Made by a program: the position numbers and the translations under genes
In this document: positions 2,848-54,259 of the stretch, one piece after another
Layout of the letters: every line of letters begins with the position of its first letter
Position numbering within the stretch: the stretch's first letter is position 1
The notes under the pieces: model-generated
What the model saw: the letters and a program-made list of their open reading frames with translations, nothing else
Databases searched by the model: none
Told to the model about the DNA's origin: nothing
IMG/VR virus record: IMGVR_UViG_3300038479_000056
Span: 1-54,380 of that record
Direction: 5' to 3' (one strand)
DNA: 54,380 nucleotides
Source: a virus
Taxonomy: Duplodnaviria > Caudoviricetes

Positions 2848-3552
2848 ATGACCATTCTCTTGGCGTATATTTGCGTGACTGGTGGGCCAAAGACCCACGA
2901 ACTGGCCGCGCGATTCGTCGGGTCCTACTTAACTCACCCACCAGGAATTGAACACCAAACTGTGGTTGTCTGTAATGGCGGTCCACTTTCAACTGAAACG
3001 GCCCTGTTGTTCCTGCCGCTGGACGTAAAATTTTTTCCAAGGGAAAATGACGGCGGTTGGGATGTGAGCGGATTCCAAGATGTAGCCAAGAATTTCCAGT
3101 CAGATATGCAGGTAAATTTTGGTGAGAGTTGCTACCTGCACCGCCCCGGCTGGCTTCGGCAGCTTGCTCAAGCGTGGTCTGTTTTTGGCCCTGGGTTCTA
3201 TGGCGTGTTCTCAAGTCATGCCGTTCGCGCTCACCTGAACACGAACGCTTTTATGTGCGCGCCGAAGCACTTGACTGAATATCCAGCGGTGCGGACGCAT
3301 CGTGAGCGCTATGAGTTCGAGCACGGGCCGGACGCGCTGTGGCGGCGGCTGGACAGGAAAGGGGTGCCGGTGCGGTTGGTGACCTGGGACGGGACCTGGG
3401 CCAAGGGCGACTGGCGCAAGCCGGCCAACATCCTGTCCCGTGGCACGCAGGAAAATTCCCTCGTATTTTGCATTCATAACGAGAGATACTGGGCTGCTGA
3501 TCCGGCGACGAAGCGGAAATGGGCCAGTTACAGCGATGCGCCTTTCCATTGA
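2848..3552 (+). CDS. Glycosyltransferase-like hypothetical protein
   Basis: GT-A-like pattern (VVVCNGG, RENDGGWD); stop TGA is supplied by the end of tnpB element 1. Confidence 0.5.
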   Translation: MTILLAYICVTGGPKTHELAARFVGSYLTHPPGIEHQTVVVCNGGPLSTETALLFLPLDVKFFPRENDGGWDVSGFQDVAKNFQSDMQVNFGESCYLHRPGWLRQLAQAWSVFGPGFYGVFSSHAVRAHLNTNAFMCAPKHLTEYPAVRTHRERYEFEHGPDALWRRLDRKGVPVRLVTWDGTWAKGDWRKPANILSRGTQENSLVFCIHNERYWAADPATKRKWASYSDAPFH

Positions 3553-3710
3553 CATCCTCCCCGGCCTGAAGGCGCGGGGATTCCTTGAATACAAATATGC
3601 TAGACATTTGCAGAGCTAGGTTGGTTGACACTTCGACGAGCATGGCGCGCCGAGGCCGAAGCCTTGGCGTGACTGATATGCTCTCCATGTCCTTTAACCG
3701 GCTGTCCACC
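3549..3710 (-). ncRNA. Putative omegaRNA scaffold, element 1
   Basis: Position at tnpB 3' end/right end; guide predicted from flank TGGAAAGGCGCATCGC; 5' limit approximate. Confidence 0.55.
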
Positions 3711-4892
3711 GGCAAATTGAAGAATGTTTTTCGCGGCATTCTGATCTCTGTCCAAATGCTCGCCGCAGTTTTCGCATTTGAACTCGCGCACTTCCAAACC
3801 AAGGCTGCTGTGTATGTATCCGCAGGAATTGCACCGCCTGCTGCTTGGGAAGAATCTGTCTGCTACGCGCAACTCGCGGCCATACCAGGCACACTTGTAA
3901 GTCAGCATCGAACGGAACTGCCCAAAGCTGGCGCAACTGATATGCTTTGCGAGTTTGTGGTTCTTGACCATGCCGCGCACGTTCAAGTCCTCGATGGCCA
4001 GAACATCGAACCGGCGCACCAAATCTGTGGTGAGCTTGTCCAGTGTGTCCTTCCGGCAGTTGGCGATCTTGGCGTGCAAACGAGCCACTTTCAACCGCTG
4101 CTGATTCCAACGGCCACTGCCCTTGATGCGACGGGCGAGAACCCGTTGCAATCTCGCCAGCCTTGCGGCGTGGCGGGCAGTGTGGCGTGGGTTTGCCATC
4201 CGCTCGCCGTTACTCAAGGTTGCGAGCCGACTGATTCCAAGGTCAATCCCGACCATGCTTCCTGTCTTTGGGAGCGCGGCCTTGGCTGGTTCGTCCAGAC
4301 AAAGACTCACGAAATAGCGTCCATCCCTGCCCTTGGTTATCGTGCAGGTAGTAGGCTCGCTCGCGAAACCGCGACTCCATTTGACATGAAGCCGACCGAC
4401 TTTGGAAATTGTGAGGTTGCGGTTTGCCGCATCCCATTTGAAACCGCCAGAATGGTATTCGGCGGATTGCTTGTCGTGCTTGGAAGCAAACCTTGGATAG
4501 GCTGTCCGCTTGGCAAAGAAATTGGAGAACGCAGTTTGCAAGTGCCGCAATGCCTGCTGCTGTGGGATGCTGGACGATTCACGCAGAAAAGCAAACTCGC
4601 CGGTATTACGATGTTTAGTCCAAGCCGCGCTGCTGGCGTTGTAATTGACCGGCTTGCCGTCTTTGAAGCTGTCCGTGCGGAGGCGCAAGGCAAAATTGTA
4701 GGCGTGCCTGACACAGCCGAACTCCCGCGCCAGTTGCCGCGCTTGGCGGTCTGTCGGGTAGCATCGGAATGTCATGCGAACTTTCACTTGCAAGAATCTA
4801 CTCCGTCTTGTAAGGTTTGTCCAATGCTAATTTCAACAACTGAAAAAGCCGGGCTAAAGCCACGGGGTTTTCAACCCATAAGGAATGGATAA
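3585..4892 (+). other. Full-length antisense ORF across element 1
   Basis: 435 codons, codon-aligned with tnpB; its TAA overlaps the ATG at 4892 (TAATG); translation unproven. Confidence 0.4.
3600..4793 (-). CDS. tnpB: RNA-guided endonuclease TnpB
   Basis: FRCYPT N-terminus; RuvC GIDLG / IEDL / DRDQNAA; zinc finger CNSC..CENC. Confidence 0.95.
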   Translation of the reverse strand: MQVKVRMTFRCYPTDRQARQLAREFGCVRHAYNFALRLRTDSFKDGKPVNYNASSAAWTKHRNTGEFAFLRESSSIPQQQALRHLQTAFSNFFAKRTAYPRFASKHDKQSAEYHSGGFKWDAANRNLTISKVGRLHVKWSRGFASEPTTCTITKGRDGRYFVSLCLDEPAKAALPKTGSMVGIDLGISRLATLSNGERMANPRHTARHAARLARLQRVLARRIKGSGRWNQQRLKVARLHAKIANCRKDTLDKLTTDLVRRFDVLAIEDLNVRGMVKNHKLAKHISCASFGQFRSMLTYKCAWYGRELRVADRFFPSSRRCNSCGYIHSSLGLEVREFKCENCGEHLDRDQNAAKNILQFAGGQPVKGHGEHISHAKASASARHARRSVNQPSSANV

Positions 4893-5920
4893 TGAACGAG
4901 CCTATCCACATCATCAGCCTTGGGGCTGGAGTTCAATCGTCAACCGATGCGCTCATGGTTTCAGAGGGTGAACGCGGCCCTATGGTGTTGTGTGCGATCT
5001 GTGCAGACACCAAAAGAGAGCCTGGCAGCGTGTATTTGTGGCTCGCTAAACTTTGCGGGTGCGTTGTTCAGTTTCACGCAGACGGCAGGCCGTTTGTTGA
5101 ACCTGGAATTTATTCATCCGGGATGCTCAAGTTTCCGGTTCACATCGTAACTGCCGGGGATATTGTAGAGGATGCCCTGCGCGTCCGGCAACGGCTCGAT
5201 GGCAAAGGTTCATGGGTGCCTAGTGGCGTGCCTCATTATTCGATTAACGCGGACGGAACGCACGGCCACGGGCCAAGGCAATGCACGCATGATTTCAAAA
5301 TAGTTCCCATCGAAAGAGAATTGCGCCGCTTGATCGGGCGAGAGAAAATGTCGGCATGGAGGAAAGTTCACAAAACCGCCCTCAAAGAGATTTCAAAATA
5401 TCAGAAAGCCTTGGCCATTTGGAAACGCAATAGGAAACTAGACCCACTGCTTTTGCCTCCGACGTTTCCAAGTCGTGAATTCGATGAGTGCCAAGCTGAC
5501 CCGTTAGCTATACAGCGCATTGGCATCAGCACCGATGAGGCGTCCAGAGCGAAACCTTCGCGTGTTCCTTACTTGGTTCATATCTGGCCCCACCTTGACC
5601 ACGGCACAAATAGGGATGGCTGCATTGAATGGCTGGCGAAGCGTGGATTGGAAGCTCCTAAATCCGCCTGCGAATTTTGCCCCTACCATGATGACGATGA
5701 ATGGATTTGGTTGCGGGACATGGAGCCGGAAAGTTTTGAGAGGGCGGTAAAATTTGATTACGCTTACCGAGCCGCCAAAATACAGACGGTTTCAATCAAA
5801 GGCTTTGAACCCTTCATCCACCCCAGCCGACTGCCCTTGGACAAAGTCAAATTCAAAAAGTCGCACGGCAAACAACTAACCATGTTTAACAACGAGTGCG
5901 AAGGGATGTGCGGGGTATGA
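4892..5920 (+). CDS. PAPS reductase-like / PP-loop protein
   Basis: ISLGAGVQSS PP-loop, ADT..EP, KSACEFCPY, terminal ECEGMCGV. Confidence 0.75.
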   Translation: MNEPIHIISLGAGVQSSTDALMVSEGERGPMVLCAICADTKREPGSVYLWLAKLCGCVVQFHADGRPFVEPGIYSSGMLKFPVHIVTAGDIVEDALRVRQRLDGKGSWVPSGVPHYSINADGTHGHGPRQCTHDFKIVPIERELRRLIGREKMSAWRKVHKTALKEISKYQKALAIWKRNRKLDPLLLPPTFPSREFDECQADPLAIQRIGISTDEASRAKPSRVPYLVHIWPHLDHGTNRDGCIEWLAKRGLEAPKSACEFCPYHDDDEWIWLRDMEPESFERAVKFDYAYRAAKIQTVSIKGFEPFIHPSRLPLDKVKFKKSHGKQLTMFNNECEGMCGV

Positions 5921-6600
5921 AAACTGCCGTTTTTTTTCATACTCGGTTGAGCGGCGGTTACAATGTCGATTCGGGTGCGGCGGTGGAGCCCGGTTGGGGC
6001 CGGTCCCTTTTCTTGGAGCAAATGGCGGTTCTGGTCAAGAGCGGGTTGGCCGAGGCCGCCCAAGAATTCTTCATTGGTTTCAATGGGAGCCGCGGGGACT
6101 GGGCCTTTGTCTGTGACAATACTCCCGCCAAGGCCAAGATATTGCAGCACGGGGAGAACGCCCGGAGCTTGTTGCCGACGATGCGGTTTTTGCAGGACTG
6201 GTTGCCGGGCCACGAGGATTGGGCGGTGTTCTTTTCGCATGCCAAAGGAGCGTGTCATCCGAATGATCCTCTTACGACCCGGTGGCGGAATTGCATGACG
6301 CGGCATTGCATCACGAACTGGCGGCGGTGCGTGGCCGATTTGGAGGCCGGTTACGACGCGGTAGGTTGCCACTGGCTTCACAACAGGCCGAATGACCCAA
6401 ACGCGGACAGGTGGGGGGCCAACAGCTACTTTGGCGGGGTGTTCTGGGGCAGCAAGGCCAGGTATCTATTGACTCTGCCGCCGTTGCCGGACCTGGCGAC
6501 GGATCGGCACTCGTTTTATCTGCCCGAATTGTGGCTGGGCAATGGCAAGCCCAAGGTAAAGGACTACGCCCAAGGGCACGCGATTGGAGCCTGTCCGTGA
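5917..6600 (+). CDS. Glycosyltransferase-like hypothetical protein
   Basis: ATGA-coupled start; FFSHAKG, YDAVGC, FGGVFW and ELWLG motifs resemble phage GT-associated proteins. Confidence 0.5.
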   Translation: MKTAVFFHTRLSGGYNVDSGAAVEPGWGRSLFLEQMAVLVKSGLAEAAQEFFIGFNGSRGDWAFVCDNTPAKAKILQHGENARSLLPTMRFLQDWLPGHEDWAVFFSHAKGACHPNDPLTTRWRNCMTRHCITNWRRCVADLEAGYDAVGCHWLHNRPNDPNADRWGANSYFGGVFWGSKARYLLTLPPLPDLATDRHSFYLPELWLGNGKPKVKDYAQGHAIGACP

Positions 6601-7187
6601 ATGTGACCATCATTATGCCATTCTCGCGCGCGCACAATGCCGAGGCGATCAAGGCGTCCTTTGTTTCCGCCTGTGACGGGTTCAACGGCAAAGCCAGGCT
6701 GATTGCCGTTTGTTCCGATGAGGCGCACGTCGGTTTATTTGACGAATCGGTGCTGACTTTTTTGCCGCCGGGTCTGGACTGGTGCTATTTCAAATGCAAT
6801 CAAGCCTTGGAAAATTTGCAGCCGTCCAGCCCCGAAGATTATTTCGGTTTTGTGTGCGACGACGATCTTTATGAGCCGGGCTTTTTCGCGTCCCTGGAAC
6901 AACTGATCGGGGCCAGCCGCCCGCGAGTTATTGTCGTCAACATGAAGCGATGGTTTCACGAGGTCGCTGTGCGGGATGAATTGTCGGCCTGGCCGGATTC
7001 GATGCGGGTTGGGTTGGTGGGTTTGGAGCAATTCTACATTCGGGGCGACATCATGGGGCGGTGGCGGTTCAACCAAAATGTCTCGCACGGCGACGGAGAT
7101 TTGATGGCGCGACTGCACGCGGAGATGCCCCACGATTTCGTTTTCTTCCGGCACTTGTTCGTCCACTGGAACAAACTTCCCGCATGA
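6597..7187 (+). CDS. GT-A (family 2-like) glycosyltransferase
   Basis: GTGA-coupled start; VTIIMP N-terminus; YFGFVCDDDLY DxD motif. Confidence 0.65.
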   Translation: MNVTIIMPFSRAHNAEAIKASFVSACDGFNGKARLIAVCSDEAHVGLFDESVLTFLPPGLDWCYFKCNQALENLQPSSPEDYFGFVCDDDLYEPGFFASLEQLIGASRPRVIVVNMKRWFHEVAVRDELSAWPDSMRVGLVGLEQFYIRGDIMGRWRFNQNVSHGDGDLMARLHAEMPHDFVFFRHLFVHWNKLPA

Positions 7188-9586
7188 CAACCGCACCCAA
7201 CAAGAGTAAGAGTCAATTTATGAAATGGGACAAAGTTGGTGATGTAGAAGAAATTGTCTGGTTCTTAAGAACGAATGATTTAACCCGCGGGGCAAACCGG
7301 GAGAAGATCAACCGACTCTTTAATGGGGGACTTCCGTACAGTAAAGCGCAAGAAGCTGAAAATTCAGTTAGTGTCAACCGCAATTTCCTGACTGGCCCAA
7401 ACATTCTCACATCGGGGCGAGGTCAATGGAACAATGCTTTCCTCAAGCAAAAGACCTATTTCGGGGTCAGTCTTGATTCCGGTCCGGTCAACAAGCGGCA
7501 AGAGGCCGGGGCCATCATCACGCGCAACATCAATCGGCAGTTGAAGAAATGCCGGGCGCAGATGGAGCAAATCCGGGCCGAAGGCGCACAAGTTATTTTA
7601 CACGGTATCGCGCCTAGCGGATTTAAAGACCGGCGCTGTCCCATTCTAACGTCTTTGCCGGTTGCGAGTCTTCTTATTCCTGATGAAACTGATTTGGATT
7701 TTGAGAACCTAGAGTATTTCGCCGTATTCCGGGAATGGACGCCCTACCAACTTTACGCGCTAACGCACGGGCCGAAGGTTGATCCTGGTTGGAACATGGA
7801 AGCCGTCCAAGCTGAGTGGGATTATGTTAAAGAACAGACCCGAAAAGAATTGCCCGGTAGCAACACCTTGCAATTTATGCCTGAAAGAATAATGGAGCTT
7901 GAAAAACAGGCTGCTCTTTGGGGCACAACCGCCGTGCCGACGGTGGACGTGTGGGATTTCTACTTTCGCGAGGCTGAGGACGGGCAAGGTTGGTATCGGC
8001 GCATCATGCTGGATTGGGGCGCGGCTGAGGGCGGTCTGAACGCGAACAGCGCCCAGCCTGAGAGCCGAAACGGAGCAGGCGAAAAAGATTACGGCGGGTT
8101 TCTTTACACCAGCGGCCAGCGTAAGTACGCCAACAGCCTGAGCGAGATTTTACAGTGCCAATTTGGGGATTGCAGCGCTGTGGCGCCGTTCAAGTATCAT
8201 TCCGTGCGGAGCCTGGGCTGGCTGCTGTGGGGCGTGTGCGAGATCGAGAACCGGTTGCGCTGCCGATTCACCGAAAACATGTTTATGAACATGATGTGGT
8301 GGTTTAAGTGCGCCAGCGGCGGGGACATGGCGCGGGTCAAGAAAGCCATGTTCGAGCAGATCGGGGTCATTCCCGCCGGCATAACGATGATGACGGAGAA
8401 CGAACGGTTTAAGCCCGACGAAAAGTTGTGGGCGGTTATGGTGGAGCAGATTGAAAAAACCATGAATCAAAGCGCGGGATCGTTCATGGGCAACCCGGCT
8501 GACATTGGCAAGGAAGAGACAGCCACGGGCACAATGGCGCGCGTTCACAGCGTTGGCCAGATGATGGGGGGGATGCTGACACTGGCCTACGAATACAGCA
8601 AATACAAGTATCAGGAACAGAGCCGCCGGTTCTGCATCAAAAACAGCCCGTATCAGATGGTGAAAGATTTTCGGCTGGCTTGCCTCAAAGACGGCCTGGA
8701 CGCGGAAATGCTGGATTCGAGCCGGTGGAACATCGAGCCAGACCGGGCTTTGGGCGACGGCAATAAGATTTTGGAAATGGCCATCGCGCAAGGTCTGGAA
8801 AACATCAGGAAAAACGCGACACCGGACGGGCAACGGCTCATTGACCATCAGTACGTCGTGACGCTGACGGACCGGCCCGACCTGGCCGAGGCGCTTTTTC
8901 CATTGCAAGGCCAGAAGAAGCTCAGTCCGAGCAGTCACGACGCGCAACTGGCCGCCGACAGGATTCTGCGCGGGCTGCAATTCGCCATTCCGTCCGAGGC
9001 CGTGCCGGAAGATTACGTCATGGTCTGGCTGGGCGACATGGCGGCCGTCATCAAGCAGATTCAAGGGACGGGCAACGTCGGCACGATGCCGGAACTTTTG
9101 GGCCTGGCCAACCTGGGCCAGCACATCGGGCAAGCCATTGGCCTGATGGCGAGCGGGCATGGCAAGGAGCCGGGGCACGGCCAGAAACGGGGCGAGGCCG
9201 AGGACATGCACAAGATCAAGCAGTATAAGGACGCCCTGGGCAAGATGATGAACCTGGTCAAAGGCTTCGCGCAACGGCTCCAAGAGCAGCAGCAAAAGGG
9301 CAACGGGCACGGACTCGACCCGGAGAAGATGGCCAATATTCAGACCGATCAAATGAAGGTCAAGGCCAAAATTCAACTTGGTCAGGAGAGCCACGCGGCC
9401 AAGACCGCGCAGCGGCAGGCTGCATTTGAGCTTGAGCAACGGCGGAAAGACCGTGAAAGCGAGGCGGAAACCCGGCGCCAGAATCAGCGGACGGGCCAGG
9501 AGATCGCGCATAAACACCTGGACAAACTGCTGGACGCCCACCACCGAATGCTGGGCGAAGGCGACGAAAGGACTCAACAGGATTAA
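7184..9586 (+). CDS. Putative portal protein
   Basis: About 800 aa; lies between terL and scaffold/capsid; ETAT motif; Gln-rich coiled-coil tail; ATGA-coupled start. Confidence 0.65.
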   Translation: MTTAPNKSKSQFMKWDKVGDVEEIVWFLRTNDLTRGANREKINRLFNGGLPYSKAQEAENSVSVNRNFLTGPNILTSGRGQWNNAFLKQKTYFGVSLDSGPVNKRQEAGAIITRNINRQLKKCRAQMEQIRAEGAQVILHGIAPSGFKDRRCPILTSLPVASLLIPDETDLDFENLEYFAVFREWTPYQLYALTHGPKVDPGWNMEAVQAEWDYVKEQTRKELPGSNTLQFMPERIMELEKQAALWGTTAVPTVDVWDFYFREAEDGQGWYRRIMLDWGAAEGGLNANSAQPESRNGAGEKDYGGFLYTSGQRKYANSLSEILQCQFGDCSAVAPFKYHSVRSLGWLLWGVCEIENRLRCRFTENMFMNMMWWFKCASGGDMARVKKAMFEQIGVIPAGITMMTENERFKPDEKLWAVMVEQIEKTMNQSAGSFMGNPADIGKEETATGTMARVHSVGQMMGGMLTLAYEYSKYKYQEQSRRFCIKNSPYQMVKDFRLACLKDGLDAEMLDSSRWNIEPDRALGDGNKILEMAIAQGLENIRKNATPDGQRLIDHQYVVTLTDRPDLAEALFPLQGQKKLSPSSHDAQLAADRILRGLQFAIPSEAVPEDYVMVWLGDMAAVIKQIQGTGNVGTMPELLGLANLGQHIGQAIGLMASGHGKEPGHGQKRGEAEDMHKIKQYKDALGKMMNLVKGFAQRLQEQQQKGNGHGLDPEKMANIQTDQMKVKAKIQLGQESHAAKTAQRQAAFELEQRRKDRESEAETRRQNQRTGQEIAHKHLDKLLDAHHRMLGEGDERTQQD

Positions 9587-9740
9587 AGTTCCCCGGCCTA
9601 AAGGCACGGGGATTTAGCCGAGTCCTTCACCAACACCAAATCGCCATGCGGAACGCACGATTCAGAGTCAATATCGACAGACCCGATGCTTTTAGCGGCT
9701 TTAATGCTCGCCGTCTCCGAAGCGTTGCACGCTATGGAGA
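9583..9740 (-). ncRNA. Putative omegaRNA scaffold, element 2
   Basis: Overlaps tnpB 3' end and right-end hairpin; guide predicted TCCTGTTGAGTCCTTT; 5' limit approximate. Confidence 0.5.
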
Positions 9741-10779
9741 CAGACCGCGCCCGGATGTTCTTCGAGGCTTGGCGGTCTGCGTCGTCCTTGTGGCCGCACT
9801 TCTGACAACAGAAGCGCAAGCCTTTCCGGTTCGATGCCGAGACATGGCCGCAGGCACTACACCCACGGCTTGTGTTGCGGGGGCTGACGGACTCCAATTC
9901 GATTCCGACAGCAGCAGCCTTATAGGCGATCTTGAATCGCATATCGGCATACGGCCAGCGGTGAACTTTGGAACGGAGGTCTTTCCCCTTGCTCAGAGAA
10001 CTGTCTCGAATGTTCTCCAAGTTCTCGACCACGATGCGCCTTGCTCCAACCTCAACCGCGTAGCTGACCAGTGCCTTACTTGCCGTGTGGAGCAAGTGCG
10101 CGGTTACGGCAGCCTCATGCCCGGACATCCTTCGCAGGAGCCTCCGGGCACTTCTGGTGCCAACCGACTGGACAGCGGCGCGGGTGCGCCGGATACAAGA
10201 ACGACGGTGATTCAACACCCCGCCGTGGAAGAAAAATGGTTTGGCGTTTGCCGAGTTGGTAGCGACCAGCATTCGCTTGATGCCGAAATCACAGCCGACA
10301 ATGCAGCCCTCGGACTTCGGTTCGGGAATCTCGACTTCGTGAGCCAAGCAGAGAAACCACTGGTTGCCTATACGCTTGATCTTGGAGTCTTTCCAGTCGC
10401 CCTCTGGCAGTGGGCGGGAATCCACGACGGTCAGAAGTTCCCCCCAAAGTGTGATGCCTTTTTTGGTGCGATTGAAATCCCGCTTCCATACCGTCGGGAT
10501 AACGGCACGGGAAAACTTCGCAAGCCTCCAACGCTTGTTCGCCTTGGCGGTCTTGTAGGTGGCGCAGACGGTTTTGCAGAGGGAGCAGGCAAGTTGGGAA
10601 GGCAGCCCCATCTCTCGGAGGTTGGCGTAGTGAGCTTTTGCCAGTCGATTCGAGTTCAACTCCTCGGTCTTGAAGGCAATATCGGAAAGCCAGTTTGCAG
10701 CTTTCAGCCAAACAGCAAGCAATCCGTCAGCTTTTGTGCTGCCGGAAATCTTGAGCTTGACTGTGCGGATTGCTTTCAC
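9598..10779 (-). CDS. tnpB: RNA-guided endonuclease TnpB
   Basis: RTVKLK N-terminus; GCDFG / VVENL / DADRQAS; CSAC..CQKC. Confidence 0.95.
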   Translation of the reverse strand: MKAIRTVKLKISGSTKADGLLAVWLKAANWLSDIAFKTEELNSNRLAKAHYANLREMGLPSQLACSLCKTVCATYKTAKANKRWRLAKFSRAVIPTVWKRDFNRTKKGITLWGELLTVVDSRPLPEGDWKDSKIKRIGNQWFLCLAHEVEIPEPKSEGCIVGCDFGIKRMLVATNSANAKPFFFHGGVLNHRRSCIRRTRAAVQSVGTRSARRLLRRMSGHEAAVTAHLLHTASKALVSYAVEVGARRIVVENLENIRDSSLSKGKDLRSKVHRWPYADMRFKIAYKAAAVGIELESVSPRNTSRGCSACGHVSASNRKGLRFCCQKCGHKDDADRQASKNIRARSVSIACNASETASIKAAKSIGSVDIDSESCVPHGDLVLVKDSAKSPCL

Positions 10780-10787
10780 TACATTGA

Positions 10788-10816
10788 AGGCTACTACAAA
10801 GAAAAAACAATGTCAA
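10788..10816 (-). promoter_or_regulatory. Sigma70-like promoter of tnpB2
   Basis: TTGACA-17-TAGCCT ending about 9 nt before the GTG. Confidence 0.55.
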
Positions 10817-10845
10817 CCGAATTGCGAAGCGTGAAAAACAAATAA
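10810..10845 (+). pseudogene. tnpA: Putative tnpA N-terminal stub
   Basis: MSTELRSVKNK, divergent from tnpB; matches MSNELR of element 4. Confidence 0.45.
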
Positions 10846-10849
10846 GTCA

Positions 10850-12142
10850 ATGCAGGATATTTCTCAAATTACAGCGTGCTTGATTTCGTCGGGATTATTC
10901 CAGCCTATGGCGCATATTTTAGCCACGAAATGCAAAAGGGTTTTAATCTGGTCGCCGGATGAAAGAGATTTTCCGTCCGTGAAACAGGCCAGCATGGGCA
11001 GCGGCTTTCCCGACATCGAACGGGTGCGGGAGTTTTGGCCGTTGAAGAACGAAATAAGTTGCTTCGTTTTTCCCGATGTCTCCATGCCCGGCCTGCAACT
11101 CGAATTGGAGTCCCAAGGATACCCCGTTTGGGGAAGCCGCAACGGGGTTGATCTGGAATTGAAGCGGGAACGGTTCATGGAGGTCTTGGGCGAGATCGGT
11201 CTGGACGTGCCGCCGTTCCATGTCTGTGCTGGCATGGACGAACTCCGGGCCTATCTCCGGGACAATGAAGATCAATTCGTCAAGATCAGCCGTTTCCGGT
11301 TCGACATGGAAACGCACCATTGGCGGAACTGGGCGATGGACGAGAGCTGGTTGGATTGGCTTGCTTACAGCTTAGGGCCGGTCAAGGACGTGCTTCGGTT
11401 CCTGGTCTTTGCCAAGATCGAGACCGATCTTGAAATCGGTGGCGACACGTTCAATGTGCGCGGGCAATGGCCGGGGCTGATGCTGAACGCTTATGAGTAC
11501 AAGGATTCCACCTTGTTTTCGGCTGTGACCAAGCGCGAGGAAATGCCGGAACAGATTCAGGAAATAATGACGGCACTGACACCGTACTTGACCGAGTGCA
11601 ATTACCGGAACCAGATCAGTTTCGAGGACAGGGTCAAGGGCGACAAACATTACTTCATAGATGCCACGATGCGCGGAGGTATGCCGAGTTCTGGCAGTCA
11701 GCAGCTTCTTTGGGGCAACTTTCCTGAGATCGTTTGGGCCGGAGCAAATGGGGAACTGGTCGAGCCGGTGCCGTGGGCAAAGTTCAGCTTGGAGTGCATG
11801 GTGACGGCGGAAGCCGGGGACGCGCCGTGGATAAAATGCGAGTTTGACCAGGCACTTTTCCCGTGGCTTCGGCTTTCGGATTGCGCCCTTATCAATGGCA
11901 TTCACTGTTTCCCCCAAGAAGAATCGCATGGAGGGGAACTGGGTTGGTTGGTGGCTCTTGGGGATAGCCCGCAGGAAGTCTTAGACGAGGCAAAACGGCT
12001 GGCTGATTTGCTCCCGGACGGGTGCGATGCCAAGTTGGAAAATCTGGTCGGCCTCATCAAAGAAGTCGAAACCGGAGAGAAAGCGGGCGTGCCTTTTACC
12101 AGTTATCCAATTCCAACTCCCGGAGAAGTAGTTGCCGAATGA
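10850..12142 (+). CDS. ATP-grasp fold protein (PurD-like)
   Basis: GYPVWGS..LELKRERFMEVLGEIGLDVPPF, FVKIS and YFIDATMRGG resemble GAR synthetase-like ATP-grasp proteins. Confidence 0.65.
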   Translation: MQDISQITACLISSGLFQPMAHILATKCKRVLIWSPDERDFPSVKQASMGSGFPDIERVREFWPLKNEISCFVFPDVSMPGLQLELESQGYPVWGSRNGVDLELKRERFMEVLGEIGLDVPPFHVCAGMDELRAYLRDNEDQFVKISRFRFDMETHHWRNWAMDESWLDWLAYSLGPVKDVLRFLVFAKIETDLEIGGDTFNVRGQWPGLMLNAYEYKDSTLFSAVTKREEMPEQIQEIMTALTPYLTECNYRNQISFEDRVKGDKHYFIDATMRGGMPSSGSQQLLWGNFPEIVWAGANGELVEPVPWAKFSLECMVTAEAGDAPWIKCEFDQALFPWLRLSDCALINGIHCFPQEESHGGELGWLVALGDSPQEVLDEAKRLADLLPDGCDAKLENLVGLIKEVETGEKAGVPFTSYPIPTPGEVVAE

Positions 12143-32698: not shown

Positions 32699-33495
32699 GG
32701 TTTGATAGCGAATTTAGCCCGCACATAATCCAGCGCGGCCAGATATTCTTTTTCATGTCGGGTTCCGGCATGGACTTCTTTGACTTGTGACTCAAATTTT
32801 TCGATTGAATCCAAAAAACAGCCCGCACCGATTTGGATTATTTCATTGAGAACATAGGCGGTCATCATGGCCGATCTCGAACCAAGCGGCCCAAGCACAA
32901 TACACTCGTATGTCATTGTGATGCTGGCCCCCTTACCGATGTTGGCCAGCGCACCGATGCTGGCCTCCTCACCGATGCTGGCCCGCTCACCGATGCTGGC
33001 CCGCTCACCGATGCTGGCCCGCTCACCGATGCTGGCCCCCTCACCGATGTTGACCCCCTCACCGATTCTGACCCCCTTACCGATTCTGGCCTCCTCACCG
33101 ATGCTGACCCCCTCACCGATGATGGCCCACTCACCGATTCTGGCCCCCTTACCGATGTTGGCCAGCGCACCGATTCTGGCCTCCTCCCCGATGTTGGCCA
33201 GCGCACCGATTCTGGCCCACTCACCGATGATGACCCCCTCACCGATTCTGACCCCCTCACCGATTCTGGCCAGCGCACCGATGTTGGCCCCCTCACCGAT
33301 GCTGGCCCGCTCACCGATTCTGGCCTCCTCACCGATGCTGACCCCCTCACCGATGTTGGCCAGCGCACCGATGTTGGCCTCCTCCCCGATGCTGGCCCCC
33401 TCACCGATGATGATTTGGCGTTGTTTTAGTTCGGCAGTTAAATCTCCTTCAAACAATTTTAACAGACCATTTTTTTCCTTGAGATATATTTTCAT
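32695..33495 (-). CDS. Left-handed beta-helix hexapeptide-repeat protein
   Basis: About 27 IGExAx repeats; C-terminal GPLGSR..GCF domain. Confidence 0.8.
   Translation of the reverse strand: MKIYLKEKNGLLKLFEGDLTAELKQRQIIIGEGASIGEEANIGALANIGEGVSIGEEARIGERASIGEGANIGALARIGEGVRIGEGVIIGEWARIGALANIGEEARIGALANIGKGARIGEWAIIGEGVSIGEEARIGKGVRIGEGVNIGEGASIGERASIGERASIGERASIGEEASIGALANIGKGASITMTYECIVLGPLGSRSAMMTAYVLNEIIQIGAGCFLDSIEKFESQVKEVHAGTRHEKEYLAALDYVRAKFAIKP
32920..33412. repeat. 18-bp coding tandem repeat
   Basis: Variants of the unit ACCGATGCTGGCCCGCTC. Confidence 0.9.
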
Positions 33496-45278: not shown

Positions 45279-46526
45279 TTACGCCCGAGTACTTGGCCAG
45301 TCAACAAATAACGGCAGGGAATCCCGCCATTGATGGTGGGAGGAATTGCCGCCCTTGACAAACTGTGTTTTATTTTCTGTATTTGAATAATGACAGTGAC
45401 GGTCCAATTGAAACTGATGCCCGATGCGGCGACCGCCGCATCGATGGAGGCCACTTTGCGGGCGTGCAACGGGGCGGCTGACTGGCTTTCGGAGCGCGCC
45501 TGGGGCAACCGGAAATTCGGGCAGTTCGCTTTGCAATCCGCTTTCTACAAGGACATTCGGGCAATGTTTAACATCGGGGCGCAGGCATCCTGCTTGATCT
45601 GCGCTAAAGTGGCCGATGCCTACAAACTCGACACCGAAACGCAGCGGACCTTCCGACCTTTGGGCAGCATCGCCTACGATGTCCGTAATTTGAAAATTCA
45701 CATTGAGAAGCGCGTGGCCTCGATCTGGACCATTGACGCTCGGTGCAAGGTTCCATTTCAGTGCGGCGATTACCAGGTTGATCTGCTCCGCAAAGGTCTG
45801 ATAAAGCAATCCGACCTCGTGCGCCGCCGGGATGGCCGATGGTTCCTGATGGTTTCTGTGACGCTTCCAGACACCGAGGAGTTGAAAGTGACCGACATTT
45901 TGGGCGTGGACCTGGGCATCGCTGTCATAGCCGCCGATTCGGACGGCAACAAATACTCCGGCTCCAAGTTGAATAAAATCCGGCACAGGAACAAATCGTT
46001 GCGCCGGAAGTTGCAGCGCAAAGGGACCAAGTCGGCCAAGCGGCTGTTGAAAAAGAGGAGCGCAAAAGAGGCTCGCTTCGCCCGTGACTGCAATCATGTT
46101 ATTTCCAAGAAGCTCGTATCGCTGGCTAAACGCACCAACCGCGCCATTGCACTCGAAGAACTCGACGGCATTGGCCGGAGGATAAGGGTTAGAAAAAGTC
46201 AGCGATACGGGTTGCATAGCTGGGCTTTCGCGCAACTGGGCCAGTTCACCCGTTACAAGGCCGCGATAGCAGGAGTGCCGGTGATCTTCATTGACCCGCA
46301 CTATACATCCCAGCGATGCAGCCAATGCGGCCACACCTCCAGAGCCAACCGCAAAACGCGGTCGGAATTTCTCTGCCAGAAGTGCGGCCATGCGTCCCAT
46401 GCGGACACAAACGGTTCGCTGAACATTAGGGCCTTGGGCCTGGACGTTCTGCGAACGGGCGCTTTCATACGCCCATACGCGGAGGCCACTACCTATGCCA
46501 ACTGACATGGGCTTATCCATCTGCAA
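45279..46526 (-). other. Full-length antisense ORF across element 3
   Basis: 415 codons, codon-aligned; stops shortly before the terminator; translation unproven. Confidence 0.35.
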
Positions 46527-46551
46527 TCCCGCCGTTCACGGTGGGTCTATG
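45305..46551 (+). mobile_element. IS200/IS605-family non-autonomous tnpB element 3 (ends approximate)
   Basis: Matching subterminal hairpins ATCCCGCCATTGATGGTGGG (left) and ATCCCGCCGTTCACGGTGGG (right); TTGACA at 45355. Confidence 0.75.
45390..46505 (+). CDS. tnpB: RNA-guided endonuclease TnpB
   Basis: TVQLKL; GVDLG / ALEEL / HADTNG; CSQC..CQKC. Confidence 0.95.
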   Translation: MTVTVQLKLMPDAATAASMEATLRACNGAADWLSERAWGNRKFGQFALQSAFYKDIRAMFNIGAQASCLICAKVADAYKLDTETQRTFRPLGSIAYDVRNLKIHIEKRVASIWTIDARCKVPFQCGDYQVDLLRKGLIKQSDLVRRRDGRWFLMVSVTLPDTEELKVTDILGVDLGIAVIAADSDGNKYSGSKLNKIRHRNKSLRRKLQRKGTKSAKRLLKKRSAKEARFARDCNHVISKKLVSLAKRTNRAIALEELDGIGRRIRVRKSQRYGLHSWAFAQLGQFTRYKAAIAGVPVIFIDPHYTSQRCSQCGHTSRANRKTRSEFLCQKCGHASHADTNGSLNIRALGLDVLRTGAFIRPYAEATTYAN

Positions 46552-46581
46552 AAAACGAGGCTATCCCACCAAAACGAGGCT

Positions 46582-46848
46582 CTAGGATGGCTCAGGCCGT
46601 ATCTGGAGTGCCTGGGTAAGTGTCTCGTAAGCCATTCCTACCCTGCCCTGTTCCAGTTCCGACACCGCCTCGATGATGGCCCCGCGCAGCCTGTCCTCGG
46701 TTGTAATCCTGACCAGCGGCAGGCCCGCCGCAGCCAGATTTTCGTTCAGGCCGATGGTGGCCGCGAACCGTGGCCGGTCCTCTCGCGCGTCTTCCTGGTC
46801 CTGGGCCAGCACCGCCGCATCTAATTCCTCCCATTCTTTGGTGTTCAT
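46582..46848 (-). CDS. Hypothetical protein
   Basis: ATGA-coupled to the helicase. Confidence 0.6.
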   Translation of the reverse strand: MNTKEWEELDAAVLAQDQEDAREDRPRFAATIGLNENLAAAGLPLVRITTEDRLRGAIIEAVSELEQGRVGMAYETLTQALQIRPEPS

Positions 46849-48797
46849 AGTTTGATTTCTCCTATCTGCCGTAAGCAGAGCCTTTTTGCGAGCACCGCTT
46901 GTTTTGCCGTCAGAACCGGCAATCCGGCCAAGGCCCGGCCAATGGCCGCGTCCACCTTCGAGAACCCGGATCCGGCCTCGTCCAACCGCTTTAATTCAGC
47001 GTGAATGGCCAGATTTTGCTCTGTCGTCATCAGCAGGGCTTCTTCGGCTATCTCTTTCCGTTTCCCAATCGGTTCATGGCGGGCCACCAAGACCGGCTCG
47101 GTCGCCCATTCGCCCGGATCCGTGTCCAGGGCTTTCTCGATGATTTCCTGTTTGGCCAAGATGGTTTGAATTATCCAGGCGTCGATGCTGCCTCTGACAA
47201 CCAGGTGTTTGATGAGCACGTTATCCCGTTGCCCGATGCGATGGATGCGATCGGAGGCTTGTTCCATCTTGGCCGGTGACCAGTCAATTTCGATGAACGA
47301 ACAAAGCCGCGCCGCCGTCAGCGTAATCCCCTCCCCACAAGCCCGAATGCTGCCGAAAAACGGCCCGCATCCAGGCTCGCTCTGGAATCGGTCAACAATG
47401 GCTTGCCTGTCCTCTGCCGGAGTTTCCCCAGTGATGGCCACGCTGCCTGGAAAAGCCGATCTTAAACCAGCAATTACGTCCGAATGGTGCGCAAAAATTA
47501 CCTGTTTTACCGAAAACTCATCCAAATCCTCTTTGATGGCTTCAATGGCCGCCGGCAGTTTGGCCAGCGCGGTTTGATGACGCACCTTGGCCATTTCCGT
47601 GAAGGGGATGTTGTGCGCCGCCGCCAGCGCCTTGACGGCCGCCTTGAATGCATCGTCGCTCTCCAATGCGCGCGCCAGTTCAATGCCGGCCTGGGCCTGC
47701 TCAAGCTCGGCTGCGTAGCGGCTGCTGACGGCGTTCTCTTGGGCCAGAGCCGCCCCCATTTCGTCCCCTTCCAATTCCACCACCACCCGCGTTTTGGCCG
47801 GGAGTTCTCGCAAAACTTCGGCTTTGAGCCGCCTGATGAGCACCCCGGTTTCTCTTAAAATTATTTGGAGTTCATTCAGGTTGCTCGCCCCGGAAACATC
47901 CATCCCCCACCCATTACTCACCATCCCGCAATACCGTTTTGCGTAACCCCAGTACGATCGCCACCGCGCCGGGTCCAGAAAGTTGAGCGTGGTAAAGAGT
48001 TCAATGGGCCGGTTCTCTATCGGAGTTCCAGAACAGCACAACCGATACCGGGCCCTCAACGGCGCCAGGCCAGCCTTTTTGTCGCCCATGATGGCCTTTG
48101 TCCGCTGGGCCTTGGGATTTTTACACGCCTGGCTTTCGTCCAGTATCACCAAATCCCAGTCCAGCATCCGCATCCGCTTCGCCCATTTAGCTGCTATATC
48201 GTAGTTGGCTATCACGATTTCCGTAGCCGGCCACCTCTGCCCGCTGGCCATGCCGATCTCCAATTTGCGCACGCTCCATCGCTTCATCTCTCGCGCCCAA
48301 AAATTCTTTAAACTCGCCTTGGTGAACACCAGCACCCGCTTGATTTCAGGGTTGCAATTCATCACCCCAACCGCCTGACATGATTTACCTAATCCAGGTT
48401 GATCACCGATCAAGACCCCGCCTTCGCCCCGGCTGAATTTCCTCACACAAAATTGAATGCCCGCCTTCTGAAATGGGTAGTATTTCAACCCCTCCGGACA
48501 GGGCGGCTCAAAGTCACCCACCGGCGCCGCCGCCCGGCTTAACTCCGCGCTGGCTTCTCGCTCCGCCTCAACCCCGGCCCCAAGCGGCGTCCACCACGAG
48601 GCCATGAAATTTTTTGATTCTTTGGGCCATGTGCCGATACTAATTCCAGCGGCTTTTAATTCTGTTTTGCGATCTCTCCACAGACACCAAAAAGCCTCTG
48701 TAACAGGGGCGCTGCGAACCTGGCGCCGCAAGTTTGGAATCTCCCGCGGCTCTGACCAGGGGAGAAGCGAAGAAATGTCAATGGCGGTTTGTGTCAT
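46845..48797 (-). CDS. SNF2-family helicase
   Basis: DQPGLGKS, LDESQ, SGTPIENR, GEGITLT, QASDRIHRIGQ. Confidence 0.92.
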   Translation of the reverse strand: MTQTAIDISSLLPWSEPREIPNLRRQVRSAPVTEAFWCLWRDRKTELKAAGISIGTWPKESKNFMASWWTPLGAGVEAEREASAELSRAAAPVGDFEPPCPEGLKYYPFQKAGIQFCVRKFSRGEGGVLIGDQPGLGKSCQAVGVMNCNPEIKRVLVFTKASLKNFWAREMKRWSVRKLEIGMASGQRWPATEIVIANYDIAAKWAKRMRMLDWDLVILDESQACKNPKAQRTKAIMGDKKAGLAPLRARYRLCCSGTPIENRPIELFTTLNFLDPARWRSYWGYAKRYCGMVSNGWGMDVSGASNLNELQIILRETGVLIRRLKAEVLRELPAKTRVVVELEGDEMGAALAQENAVSSRYAAELEQAQAGIELARALESDDAFKAAVKALAAAHNIPFTEMAKVRHQTALAKLPAAIEAIKEDLDEFSVKQVIFAHHSDVIAGLRSAFPGSVAITGETPAEDRQAIVDRFQSEPGCGPFFGSIRACGEGITLTAARLCSFIEIDWSPAKMEQASDRIHRIGQRDNVLIKHLVVRGSIDAWIIQTILAKQEIIEKALDTDPGEWATEPVLVARHEPIGKRKEIAEEALLMTTEQNLAIHAELKRLDEAGSGFSKVDAAIGRALAGLPVLTAKQAVLAKRLCLRQIGEIKL

Positions 48798-48969
48798 ACG
48801 CGCGGAAGGCAATCCTAAATCCATCGCCGTTGAGCCGCCTTCTAATCAGTTCGCGAATTTGCTTCACGTTGCATCCAGCGCGTAAGTAATCTGGCAGAGC
48901 TGCAAGAATGTCATCGCATTTCTGTAGTGCTTCCGCTTCGCCTTTTGACAATGGGGTGTAAACGCTCAT
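48778..48969 (-). CDS. Small hypothetical protein
   Basis: ATGA-coupled start. Confidence 0.5.
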   Translation of the reverse strand: MSVYTPLSKGEAEALQKCDDILAALPDYLRAGCNVKQIRELIRRRLNGDGFRIAFRAYDTNRH

Positions 48970-51015: not shown

Positions 51016-51501
51016 ATGACTTGGTCATCTCAAGAGACTATCGCACGTAACCAGTCCACTCTCCATCGCGCTCTTGTCTCCGCAGGACAACTCCGCAGAC
51101 ATGCACGTAACCGTGCCCTGCGACAAGCCGAAAAAGATCGTCTTATAACCGAGCGTAACCGCCATTTAACCCTCCCAGAATCCGACGCCGGCCAAATCCT
51201 GGCCATGACCGGCCCAAACCCTACCCCAGCCATGCTCCAAGCTAGTGCCACCGCCCTGGCCAAACTGCGCTCAGGAAGGTCCGGTTCCAGGCCCGGTAGG
51301 CCCAAACCCGGGCCCGCTCCAAAGCTGGTCCTGACCTACGATGAGCCTGTACACGCTCCTGTTCCTGCCACTGCTCCTGTCCCTGCTCTTGCTCCTGTCC
51401 CTGTTCTTGCTCCTGTCCCTGTCCCTGTTCCTGTCCCTGTCCCTGTCCCTGCTCCTCTCATGCCCAGTCTCAAGCCTAGACCAGATCAGTGGGATGATTA
51501 G
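51016..51501 (+). CDS. Hypothetical protein with (PV)n tail
   Basis: Basic N-terminus; hexamer repeat encoding PVPVPV. Confidence 0.5.
   Translation: MTWSSQETIARNQSTLHRALVSAGQLRRHARNRALRQAEKDRLITERNRHLTLPESDAGQILAMTGPNPTPAMLQASATALAKLRSGRSGSRPGRPKPGPAPKLVLTYDEPVHAPVPATAPVPALAPVPVLAPVPVPVPVPVPVPAPLMPSLKPRPDQWDD
51355..51455. repeat. CCTGTY/CCTGCT hexamer tandem repeat
   Basis: Seen directly; reverse-complement-like tract at 51890-51929. Confidence 0.85.
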
Positions 51502-52655: not shown

Positions 52656-52673
52656 CAGAAGGCCCTCCGAACA

Positions 52674-52743: not shown

Positions 52744-52808
52744 AGTTGAACTGTGACATTCCTAGCATGGTGCAAATTAGATTATGTCCTGAATTTTGTC
52801 CACAGGCG

Positions 52809-52837
52809 TTTATAGAACAGGTTGGGGCTGTGTGCAA
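52809..52837 (-). promoter_or_regulatory. Sigma70-like promoter
   Basis: TTGCAC-17-TATAAA. Confidence 0.6.
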
Positions 52838-52850
52838 CAAAAATCTTCAA

Positions 52851-53045
52851 TTATTTTTCCTTGAACCAGACCTCGAAGTCTTTGAGGACGCGGCGGATTT
52901 GGCCGGCTTTGGCCAGCAATTCGCAATGGCTCTGGCAGATATTCTCCGGGATGCCGGAGATGCAGGCGATGTATTTGGGCTGGAAAGAGAGGCCGGCGGC
53001 GGCGGAATTGAGTATGGTCTGGATGGCGATGGAGTGTTGGTTCAT
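52851..53045 (-). CDS. Small winged-helix-like protein
   Basis: GLSFQPKYIACISGIPENICQSHCELLAKAGQI. Confidence 0.55.
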   Translation of the reverse strand: MNQHSIAIQTILNSAAAGLSFQPKYIACISGIPENICQSHCELLAKAGQIRRVLKDFEVWFKEK

Positions 53046-53080
53046 ACACTGTGATTATTTCTACGAAGCTCGTTTGACAT
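53042..53080 (-). pseudogene. tnpA: Putative tnpA N-terminal stub
   Basis: MSNELRRNNHSV resembles Y1 transposase N-termini (..RxxHSVY..); divergent from tnpB. Confidence 0.55.
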
Positions 53081-54253
53081 ATTCAATCCTTTGAATATAT
53101 TAAGCGAGTGAAGTTGACTGTTCAAGTGAAACTTTTGCCGACGCCAGAACAATCGAAGGCGTTGCGCGAAACTCTGGAGTTGGCGAATCAAGCGGCATGT
53201 CGTCTGTCGGAACTGTGCTGGGAAAAGAAGGAGTTTCGCCAGTTCCCAATGCACCGTTTGTTCTACAAACAGATTCGCAGTGAGTTCGATTTGTCCTCTC
53301 AGGTTGTTGTCCGCCTTAACTCCAAGGTTGCTGACGCCTACAAGCTGGACGAGAAGACGCAACGCACTTTTCGCAAGCACGGCAGCATTTCCTACGACGC
53401 TCGCATTCTTGATTTCCAACTTCCTGCCTCGACCGTGAGCATCTGGACTGTGAGAGGAAGGTTGAAACATATTCAGTTTGTCTGTGGCGAGCGCCAGCGT
53501 AAGCTGCTGGAACTTCCGAAAGGCGAGAGCGATTTGGTTCTGCGTGACCGCAAGTGGTATCTCAACGTGACCGTGGACGTGCCAGAGGAACGCGAACAGG
53601 AAGTTGTTGGCTGGCTTGGCATCGACCTTGGACTGGTGAACCTCGCGCAGAGTTCCGACGGGCAGACATTCGGTGACGCTCGCAAGACAGCCGGTATTCG
53701 CGCTCGGCGATGGCGGCAGAGAAAGCGACTTCAAAAGAAAGGCACGCGCAAGGCCAAGCGCATCCTGCACCGGCTCAGTGGACGGGAACAAAGATTTATG
53801 CGGGACGTGAATCACGTCGTCGCCAAACAGATTTGCGGTGTTGCTAAACGCACGAATCGAGGGATTGCCTTGGAAGATTTGAAAGGTATTCGTTCGAGGA
53901 TCAGGGCTAACCGAAAGCAACGCCGCATCCTGCACTCGTGGGCCTTCGCGGATCTCCAAGCGAAGATTGCCTACAAGGGCAGGCTTATCGGAGTGCCGGT
54001 CAAACTCGTTGACCCTCGCAACACCAGCCGGACTTGTCCGGCCTGCGGCAGTGTCAGTAAGAAGAACCGGCCCACACGCGATAAGTTCGCGTGCCAGTCG
54101 TGCGGGTTTACCGCCGATGCCGATACCAACGCAGCGGGAAACATTTCTCGCCGGGGTGCCTTCAATCACCCGCACGTAACGGAAATTAGTTGTGGCAAAA
54201 TCCATGACCGTATCCAGTTACAATCCCCATCCCTTCAGGGAGGGGTAATTGAA
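53046..54253 (+). mobile_element. IS200/IS605-family non-autonomous tnpB element 4
   Basis: Right-end hairpin CCCCATCCCTTCAGGGAGGGG then TAATTGAA; right junction fixed (+/-1 nt) by the empty allele at 64-68; preceded by TCAT. Confidence 0.8.
53074..53101 (+). promoter_or_regulatory. Sigma70-like promoter, leaderless tnpB4
   Basis: TTGACA-16-TATATT; GTG begins 7 nt after the -10 box. Confidence 0.65.
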
Positions 54254-54259
54254 CTTTAA
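53108..54259 (+). CDS. tnpB: RNA-guided endonuclease TnpB
   Basis: TVQVKLLPT; GIDLG / ALEDL / DADTNAA; CPAC..CQSC; stop codon lies in the flank. Confidence 0.95.
   Translation: MKLTVQVKLLPTPEQSKALRETLELANQAACRLSELCWEKKEFRQFPMHRLFYKQIRSEFDLSSQVVVRLNSKVADAYKLDEKTQRTFRKHGSISYDARILDFQLPASTVSIWTVRGRLKHIQFVCGERQRKLLELPKGESDLVLRDRKWYLNVTVDVPEEREQEVVGWLGIDLGLVNLAQSSDGQTFGDARKTAGIRARRWRQRKRLQKKGTRKAKRILHRLSGREQRFMRDVNHVVAKQICGVAKRTNRGIALEDLKGIRSRIRANRKQRRILHSWAFADLQAKIAYKGRLIGVPVKLVDPRNTSRTCPACGSVSKKNRPTRDKFACQSCGFTADADTNAAGNISRRGAFNHPHVTEISCGKIHDRIQLQSPSLQGGVIEL

Follow-up and report, generated by a model that had tools for sequence, protein, structure and literature searches.

The viral record IMGVR_UViG_3300038479_000056 (Duplodnaviria; Caudoviricetes), a tailed phage sequence of 54,380 nt that was analysed in its entirety and is termed the window here, carries four different tnpB genes. 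The four cassettes are insertion sequences (IS) of the IS200/IS605 family that carry tnpB without a transposase, and these elements, IS1 to IS4, are recent and still polymorphic acquisitions in one lineage of a widespread peat and permafrost phage. That much, together with a T(C/T)AT target and the immobility of IS2 and IS4, we regard as practically certain. The best explanation of the whole adds a homing step. Each element would first have arrived by ordinary insertion with the transposase TnpA acting in trans, and each TnpB, guided by an omega RNA whose last part is the right-end hairpin followed by flank sequence, would then target the IS-free allele. During co-infection, IS-free genomes would be cut by the nuclease and repaired from an IS-bearing template, and would so acquire the element along with adjacent DNA, a form of transposase-independent homing or gene drive. 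Judged from the sequences, we give this explanation, homing step included, a probability of about 0.55. Few prokaryotic genes are as abundant as tnpB, and the reason for its success is still debated.

Four tnpB elements and their ends

The nucleases are compact (371-397 amino acids, aa), each with a target motif inferred below. TnpB1 (3600-4793, minus strand; 397 aa) is ISDra2-like, TnpB2 (9598-10779, minus strand; 393 aa) belongs to a Cas12f-like TnpB clade, TnpB3 (45390-46505, plus strand) has 371 aa, and TnpB4 (53108-54259, plus strand) has 383 aa, its recorded form being a 381-aa protein that starts at 53114. All four pass the cut-offs of Pfam PF07282 (Cas12f1-like_TNB) and PF01385 (OrfB_IS605) and that of NCBIfam guided_TnpB (NF040570), with Cas12f2 as the second-ranking NCBIfam model for TnpB2, TnpB3 and TnpB4. 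The other three are about 21% identical to TnpB1, and in the alignment D184, E268 and D350 (TnpB1 numbering) as well as CxxC...CxxC form invariant columns in all four. TnpB1 aligns over its full length with the solved TnpB of ISDra2 from Deinococcus radiodurans, a TnpB-omega RNA system with the same catalytic and zinc-finger motifs (E 2e-59), and the catalytic and zinc positions agree with those of solved TnpB-like chains; in a search of solved structures made with TnpB2 and TnpB3, these two were closer to Cas12f-like TnpBs. Pfam, NCBIfam, the alignment and the hairpins located below bear out the initial annotation, which had described four divergent, intact tnpB genes with RuvC D/E/D, zinc finger and right-end hairpin. 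Its estimate of about 9% of the genome also agrees with our count (about 5.06 kb in total, 9.3% of the genome cycle), and the three TTGACA -35 boxes that it had listed are found at 10811-10816, 45355-45360 and 53074-53079. The absence of a full tnpA was likewise confirmed, since no Y1 or serine transposase domain was detected in the window at E<=10 and just two tnpA remnants, of 7 and 12 codons, were left.

IS1 is a complete tnpB-only element of 1340 nt (3549-4888, minus strand), delimited by flank divergence in three contexts and by the 3548|4889 joint of IS-free genomes. Its right-end hairpin, the 3' end of the presumed omega RNA, lies at 3558-3581 (minus strand), and its left-end hairpin, placed approximately at 4849-4867 (minus strand), is homologous to the left ends of four elements on other viral contigs (L023, L026, L028 and L029). 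IS3 (45305-46553, plus strand) is also tnpB-only; both of its boundaries are inferred, the right one by analogy with locus L043, and its left-end hairpin (45321-45341, plus strand) matches the right-end hairpin (46526-46545, plus strand). A scan with the IS3 hairpin pattern gave 12 stretches, of which L043 alone is IS-like; the remaining 11 have no TnpB hit and appear to match by chance within coding regions.

IS2 (9583-10849, minus strand) is of the IS605 type, with left-end hairpin and tnpA both lost. It is homologous to L026-L028 over 9583-10829, which leaves an inferred left-end remnant at 10830-10849 (minus strand), and the right-end hairpin lies at 9590-9613 (minus strand). Comparison with the full tnpA of L026 identifies seven remaining tnpA codons (10810-10830, plus strand). 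IS4 (53046-54253, plus strand), again IS605-type without left-end hairpin or tnpA, abuts its left flank TTCAT (53041-45) directly, with no left-end sequence between. Its right end is at 54253, or at 54259 if CTTTAA, common to the IS-free allele B described below and to the right terminus of IS2, is counted as part of the element; the right-end hairpin occupies 54223-54245 (plus strand), and a 12-codon tnpA remnant, MSNELRRNNHSV, runs from 53046 to 53080 (minus strand), its ATG overlapping the -35 box. Subterminal hairpins are thus present at both ends of IS1 and IS3 and at the right end alone of IS2 and IS4; the lack of a left-end hairpin in the latter two, which the initial annotation had noticed, holds in comparison with L026. 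IS1 is, and IS3 probably is, a complete non-autonomous element, and IS1 and, judging by its matching hairpins, IS3 could still move with TnpA in trans. Without left-end hairpin and tnpA, IS2 and IS4 can no longer be mobilised by a Y1 transposase even in trans, and so are now movable only by recombination or homing.

Scans of viral contigs with TnpB1 and TnpB2 gave nine close loci (a tenth, L025, is just 26% identical), in all of which similarity to the window is confined to the element and the flanks are unrelated. Nucleotide identity to IS1 is 98% in L020-22, which represent one context, and 86% in L023/24, another; to IS2 it is 92% in L026/27 and L028 and 76% in L029. From the points at which flanks diverge in these independent contexts, the right terminus of IS1 is ...GTCAA at 3549 and that of IS2 is ...CTTTAA at 9583. 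In two of the five viral records searched (L026 and L027) a Y1 tnpA (E about 1e-34) is encoded divergently from an IS2-type tnpB, the two genes being flanked by a left-end and a right-end hairpin. Most of tnpA is gone from L028, which keeps the left end; L029 is tnpB-only with both ends, and in L020-22 the left hairpin of the IS1-type element is deleted. The set therefore resembles IS605-type elements with divergent tnpA and tnpB (L026/L027) and tnpB-only, IS1341-type elements with both ends (L028/L029); IS2 and IS4 of the window differ from these in lacking the left end as well, so as not to be mobilisable in trans, and their TnpBs fall in the Cas12f-like clade. Because the left end of the full L026 element is homologous to that of IS1, ISDra2-like and Cas12f-like cargo use identical ends. 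The ATG of tnpA lies inside the tnpB -35 box, TTGACAT reading ATGTCAA on the opposite strand (L026:5963-5969; window 10810-10816 and 53074-53080); with seven bases common to both, tnpA translation and promoter occupancy may be coupled. No relatives of TnpB3 or TnpB4 were found in viral contigs.

A scan with the shared right-end hairpin found 13 viral stretches, five of them in new records, and three of these five encode TnpBs just 38-41% identical to TnpB1 next to a nearly invariant terminal hairpin. The terminal hairpin does not vary among six copies with TnpBs 38-98% identical, and in an inner stem upstream of it 7 of the 20 predicted pairs have changed in a compensatory way, a pattern that fits an omega RNA. 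Single-sequence fold z-scores were modest (-1.4 to -3.9), and no Rfam omega RNA or intron family was matched in the window. An IS1-type right-end module at L033:13406-13437 has no tnpB within 1.7 kb upstream and may be cargo-less or differently loaded. In runs X9 and X18 of the metagenomes described below, the IS1 right-end module (3547-3586) has 2-4 times the depth of its flanks and many different loose ends, indicating that the module is common to other elements in those communities.

Copies in different viruses record purifying selection on the nucleases, as the initial annotation had proposed to check: dN/dS ranges from 0.08 to 0.30, with 0.18-0.24 for TnpB1 and, for TnpB2, 0.08-0.12 against L026 and L028 and 0.30 against L029. 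The exact TnpB2 protein occurs on 7 contigs and the exact TnpB3 protein on 9. The closest TnpB1 relative in a genome is 52% identical (one genome per species scanned), so no host can be named. Two other classes of system were considered for the four genes. A type V-F CRISPR-Cas12f system was rejected, as no CRISPR array lies near any tnpB and the only repeats are 18-nt and 9-nt coding repeats elsewhere. TldR, a nuclease-dead TnpB-like repressor, was ruled out by the intact RuvC D/E/D of all four proteins.

An antisense, in-register frame is open across all four tnpB genes (3585-4892 and 9646-10845 on the plus strand, 45279-46526 and 53042-54205 on the minus strand). TTA, CTA and TCA codons number 0, 0, 0 and 1 in tnpB1 to tnpB4, compared with 131 of 9344 codons (1.4%) in 19 other window genes (P about 0.004 per gene). 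The frame is also open in L020, L023, L026, L028 and L029 despite saturated synonymous divergence, and it is not open in L037, L041 and Firmicutes TnpBs; in L026 it extends into tnpA to give an open reading frame (ORF) of 528 aa. A comparable ORF on the reverse strand of tnpB is described in a cyanophage preprint (10.64898/2026.02.14.705889).

Target motif, predicted guides and IS-free genomes

The five bases 5' of the left end read TTCAT in L023, L026, L028 and L029, in the left flank of IS4 and probably in L020; the other left-flank pentamers are TTTAT (L037), TTCAA (L041), ATTAT (window IS1, from the empirical joint) and TGCAT (window IS2). From these alignments the target motif of the family is read as T(C/T)AT, mostly TTCAT. 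The elements are like ISDra2 in their subterminal hairpins, in a 5-nt motif 5' of the left end and in a guide taken, as predicted here, from the right-end flank; unlike it, they reside in a phage, have no tnpA and use T(C/T)AT, where the ISDra2 target motif is TTGAT. TTCAT is the reverse complement of ATGAA, and its CAT is the start codon of the opposite-strand neighbour at IS1, IS2 and IS4 of the window and in L020, L023, L026 and L029. A T(C/T)AT target places insertions just 5' of opposite-strand starts or at stops, and right ends consequently supply the stops of two genes: the TGA of g2848 (3550-3552) is supplied by the reverse complement of the IS1 terminus, and the TAA of g7061 (9584-9586) comes from the right end of IS2. 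All four elements do sit at gene junctions, as the initial annotation had stated; the motif combined with selection against disruptive insertions explains this pattern without invoking function. The elements thus provide a simple rule for junction insertion in compact genomes, namely a target motif that is the reverse complement of ATGAA or ATAAA.

The predicted guide of TnpB1, the first 16 nt beyond the right end, corresponds to 3533-3548 (minus strand), that of TnpB2 in the window form to 9567-9582 (minus strand), and that of TnpB4 to 54254-54269 (plus strand), which is identical to 68-83 and overlaps the start of the terminase-like gene ORF1. Each predicted 16-nt guide matches its own flank alone within the window. 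In all four IS-free configurations seen, T(C/T)AT precedes the guide-matching sequence, in the pentamers ATTAT for IS1, ATCAT for the window form of IS2, TTCAT for a second IS2 form with 55 additional nt, and CTCAT for IS4 (allele B, 63-67); the TTCAT of the second IS2 form was deduced from loose ends and from an E-type protein start, MTKMK. The resident nucleases would recognise IS-free genomes if the target-adjacent motif (TAM) of TnpB is the transposase target motif. The phage accordingly provides four nuclease-guide-target triplets, with predicted guides and targets and with natural empty alleles.

Population data were taken from the Logan contigs of four runs (X1, X9, X17 and X18), compared with window positions 1-11200. 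Presence and absence at one site in otherwise near-identical genomes were seen for IS1 and IS2, and another allele was seen at the IS4 site; otherwise the run genomes differ little, at about 26 listed places over 11 kb in three runs, and the IS-free near-identical genomes come from other samples and, in part, from those that also have the elements. In X9, X17 and X18, and not in X1, which may be the source run, a joint connects 3548 to 4889, omitting 1340 nt with no microhomology. IS1 therefore has a precise filled/empty pair without target duplication. In the empty allele the TAA stop of g2848 overlaps the ATG of g4892, and on the tnpB strand ATTAT immediately precedes the flank of the IS1 right end. 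The C-terminal H allele of g2848, whose stop comes from IS1, is found on 16 contigs and the Q allele of the empty state on 22. L001, a 9-kb contig 99.85% identical to the window, has IS1 and, upstream of ORF1, the allele of the contig tail. None of nine distant relatives (L002-L010, ORF1 47-63% identical) has a tnpB in the stretches compared, and in both relatives that span g7061 and g10850 homologues the two are adjacent with only a tiny acidic ORF between them. The presence/absence comparison at orthologous sites that had been proposed thus yielded distant relatives without tnpB and near-identical phages without IS1, without IS2 or with the other allele at the IS4 site.

Neither X17 nor X18 has any depth over the body of IS2 (bins 9725-10472), and X18 joins 9582 to 10947. 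The left boundary of IS2 adjoins a diverged tract of 97 nt at the 5' end of g10850 (10850-10946, plus strand), which is tied to IS2 and marked by loose ends at 10947. Among the listed members of its cluster, g10850 occurs in two alleles, one of 430 aa (the window and 15 contigs) and one of 433 aa (16 contigs); about half of the first 33-36 residues differ, the proteins are identical beyond, and the alternative allele rejoins the window at 10947. The IS2-free state is paired with the 433-aa form in every contig where this is visible, and other polymorphic sites in g10850 are unlinked to the N-terminal type. A tract that starts at the boundary of the element in this way resembles homing co-conversion and would be the scar expected from the proposed repair. 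In X1 and X9 the second junction form places 55 more nt between g7061 and the right end of IS2. They consist of the beginning of the tiny acidic ORF plus three g10850 codons, and span exactly the distance between the IS2 right terminus and the T(C/T)AT site that follows. In relatives (L007:7510-7595; L002:5975-6040) the tiny ORF itself (20-26 aa, MPEGW...DDD) separates the homologues of g7061 and g10850, with stop and start codons overlapping those of its neighbours, and it is lost to IS2 in the window form.

At the IS4 site, positions 68-194 are identical to 54254-54380 (127 nt), so that the contig consists of a 54,186-nt cycle plus a 67-nt tail. This tail (1-67, plus strand) is an alternative allele upstream of ORF1, allele B, and contains the 3' end of a small ribbon-helix-helix (RHH)-like gene; it reads ...CTCAT immediately before the TnpB4 target and is also found in L001, X1, X17 and X18. 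In X1 both the right end of IS4 and the RHH-type allele join position 68, and in X17 and X18 the RHH-type alone does so. The left flank of IS4, a 64-aa minus-strand gene, has no homology to the RHH gene of allele B; L008 also has an RHH gene at this place. Homing from a diverged donor would be expected to leave foreign DNA to the left of IS4 and a precise junction on the right, as seen here; ordinary mosaicism is the alternative. The small genes upstream of ORF1 are of two kinds, RHH-like on the plus strand (1-61; L001:61-238; L008) and the 64-aa gene on the minus strand (52851-53045), whose cluster has 10 members with variable N-termini.

Proposed homing and its alternatives

Homing of this kind has precedents. 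An IS605 TnpB has been shown experimentally to act as a gene drive without TnpA in multicopy plasmids (Mears et al., PMC11870625), and the mechanism proposed here is the same, TnpB cutting the IS-free copies of a multicopy replicon until those with the IS prevail, no TnpA being needed; in plasmids this was shown by experiment, whereas for the phage there is natural population evidence known here from sequences. A 2026 review names "transposon non-restorative homing" in co-infecting phages as a theoretical possibility (PMC13565253). The free-standing Seg and Mob homing endonucleases of T-even phages, as treated in the same review, are likewise nuclease genes between conserved genes with presence/absence and flank co-conversion, yet they recognise DNA by protein, where TnpB, of transposon origin, uses a guide RNA and a short motif. 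Cyanophage A-1(L) is a tailed phage whose tnpB is absent from close relatives and has a long antisense frame; according to the preprint (10.64898/2026.02.14.705889), that tnpB is identical to five host copies, in contrast to the distant closest genomic relative of TnpB1, and this phage has four different elements, two of them truncated. Our searches of one literature library turned up no description of presence/absence or co-conversion of tnpB among phages in nature.

In the main rival explanation the cassettes are plain, decaying passengers. Ordinary IS200/IS605 insertions would have been made during phage replication by a host or co-resident TnpA and tolerated between genes; tnpA and left ends would have been lost by decay under packaging pressure, the insertions would be too recent to have been purged or fixed, the diverged g10850 tract would be mosaicism, and TnpB would be of no consequence for the phage. 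We take this possibility seriously while putting it clearly short of even odds. The intact ends of IS1, the tnpA-bearing relatives on other viral contigs, a right-end module that is multi-copy in the same metagenomes, and left-end hairpin deletions elsewhere, as in L020-22, all agree with it, and so does the identity of the A-1(L) tnpB to host copies (10.64898/2026.02.14.705889). It sits less easily with four different intact elements in a lineage a few substitutions per 10 kb from IS-free genomes, and with a diverged tract that begins exactly at the IS2 boundary. The immobile IS2 and IS4 have moreover retained nuclease genes, promoters and right ends, their truncations stopping just upstream of the tnpB promoter, and dN/dS is as low as 0.08. 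Two further explanations carry less weight. We consider it improbable that the TnpBs have been domesticated as weapons or regulators that exclude related phages, cut host DNA or, in the manner of nuclease-dead forms, repress adjacent genes, rather than homing selfishly. TnpB-derived repressors have reportedly been described in a 2023 preprint, and the guides do lie at the ends or starts of conserved genes, that of TnpB4 at the ORF1 start; however, the catalytic D/E/D is intact in all four, each guide finds only its own flank in the window, and the many near-identical genomes without the elements show that these are not a fixed part of the biology of the phage. An assembly artefact, in which tnpB cassettes were misjoined to the phage contig through repeats, has next to no probability. 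The tail beyond the cycle and the repetition of the right-end module in the community might hint at one, but the independent L001 has IS1 at the same place, junctions are bridged by contigs from several runs, and the exact TnpB2 and TnpB3 proteins recur on several contigs each.

A number of points weigh against homing itself. A motif beside the flank follows from any canonical insertion and does not by itself establish homing, and it is from characterised systems that we take the assumption of a TAM equal to the target motif of TnpA. With its intact ends and the tnpA of its family on other viral contigs, IS1, and perhaps IS3, can be explained by transposition alone. Identical copies in the host chromosome along with a tnpA had been named by the initial annotation as a mark of plain transposition, and the related tnpA-bearing copies on other viral contigs partly correspond to it. 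The dN/dS values mostly record history preceding arrival in this phage. Flank co-conversion, a second proposed check, gave the sharp tract at the IS2 left boundary and none around IS1 in the run contigs, and the g10850 tract could be plain phage mosaicism on the haplotype that IS2 entered. Because their left flanks are non-homologous, IS4 and allele B are not a simple filled/empty pair. The population comparison covers IS1, IS2 and the IS4 site, and it draws on Logan contigs, not raw reads, so that alleles cannot be phased and frequencies are not to be trusted. Homing-endonuclease-like action, as first suggested, therefore keeps the polymorphism, the IS2-linked tract and the immobile elements on its side, and loses the proposed SSB-like and RusA-like helpers, which were not found, and the first arrival, which transposition explains.

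Homing remains our preferred explanation, and two non-transposing elements together with a candidate co-conversion scar make it directly testable in phages. We tentatively extend it, at somewhat less than even odds, to the proposal that TnpB cassettes shorn of transposase and left end may persist in phages as RNA-guided, free-standing homing genes that spread with adjacent DNA between co-infecting relatives; if this is true, the phage would offer the first natural evidence of transposase-independent "non-restorative" transposon homing in a virus. Under this proposal the two IS2 forms 55 nt apart would reflect a self-retargeting drive, in which a deletion reaching from the right end as far as the following T(C/T)AT would give a new guide that also matches the older form.

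The phage, its genes and its distribution

The window is an entire viral record with an estimated completeness of about 96%. No close relative was found among GenBank phages by megablast or tblastn, nor among viral contigs scanned with the single proteins g7061 and a SNF2 helicase (46845-48824, minus strand). At least half of the words of the first 10 kb are present in 20 public runs from 14 studies, which are peat or permafrost metagenomes wherever named. Pfam and PHROGs gave almost no matches among window genes, most neighbours of the elements included. By language-model features, ORF1 (81-1856), which adjoins IS4, resembles a large terminase subunit (score 0.99), and g10850, beside IS2, resembles a viral ATP-grasp protein (0.97); g2848, g4892 and g7061 are PAPS-reductase-like or without assignment. 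Of the "essential head genes" that the initial annotation had placed beside, or in one operon with, three elements, the terminase-like ORF1 next to IS4 is supported, g10850 is instead ATP-grasp-like, and g2848, g4892 and g7061 are not head-assigned. As for the recombination helpers, the SSB-like and RusA-like genes have no Pfam match at E<=1, and the SbcC-like gene finds weak support (PHROG 77 at 4e-8; SMC_N below the cut-off).

Further variation was seen in and near the genes discussed. A contig of run X17 has 894 additional letters at 658/665 of the terminase-like ORF1, where X9 has loose ends too. In the relative L009 the ORF1 homologue is a single open frame with an in-frame P-loop insert (L009:5097-5899) that is intein-like, with Cys first and HN last, followed by S; an HNH-like motif occurs in an ORF on the other strand, and no Rfam intron family matched the insertion. 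Elsewhere, a minus-strand ORF (32695-33495) contains at least 25 tandem 18-nt units at 32812-33484, a hexapeptide-type repeat, and a second, shorter 18-nt array lies at 51346-51465. Two adjacent paralogous genes (24401-25549 and 25558-26544) include stretches with 74-78% nucleotide identity. Contigs of X9 and X18 connect 8894 back to 6639 with 8 letters between, and L001 also stops at 8894; this joint may reflect a duplication or a rearranged variant inside g7061.

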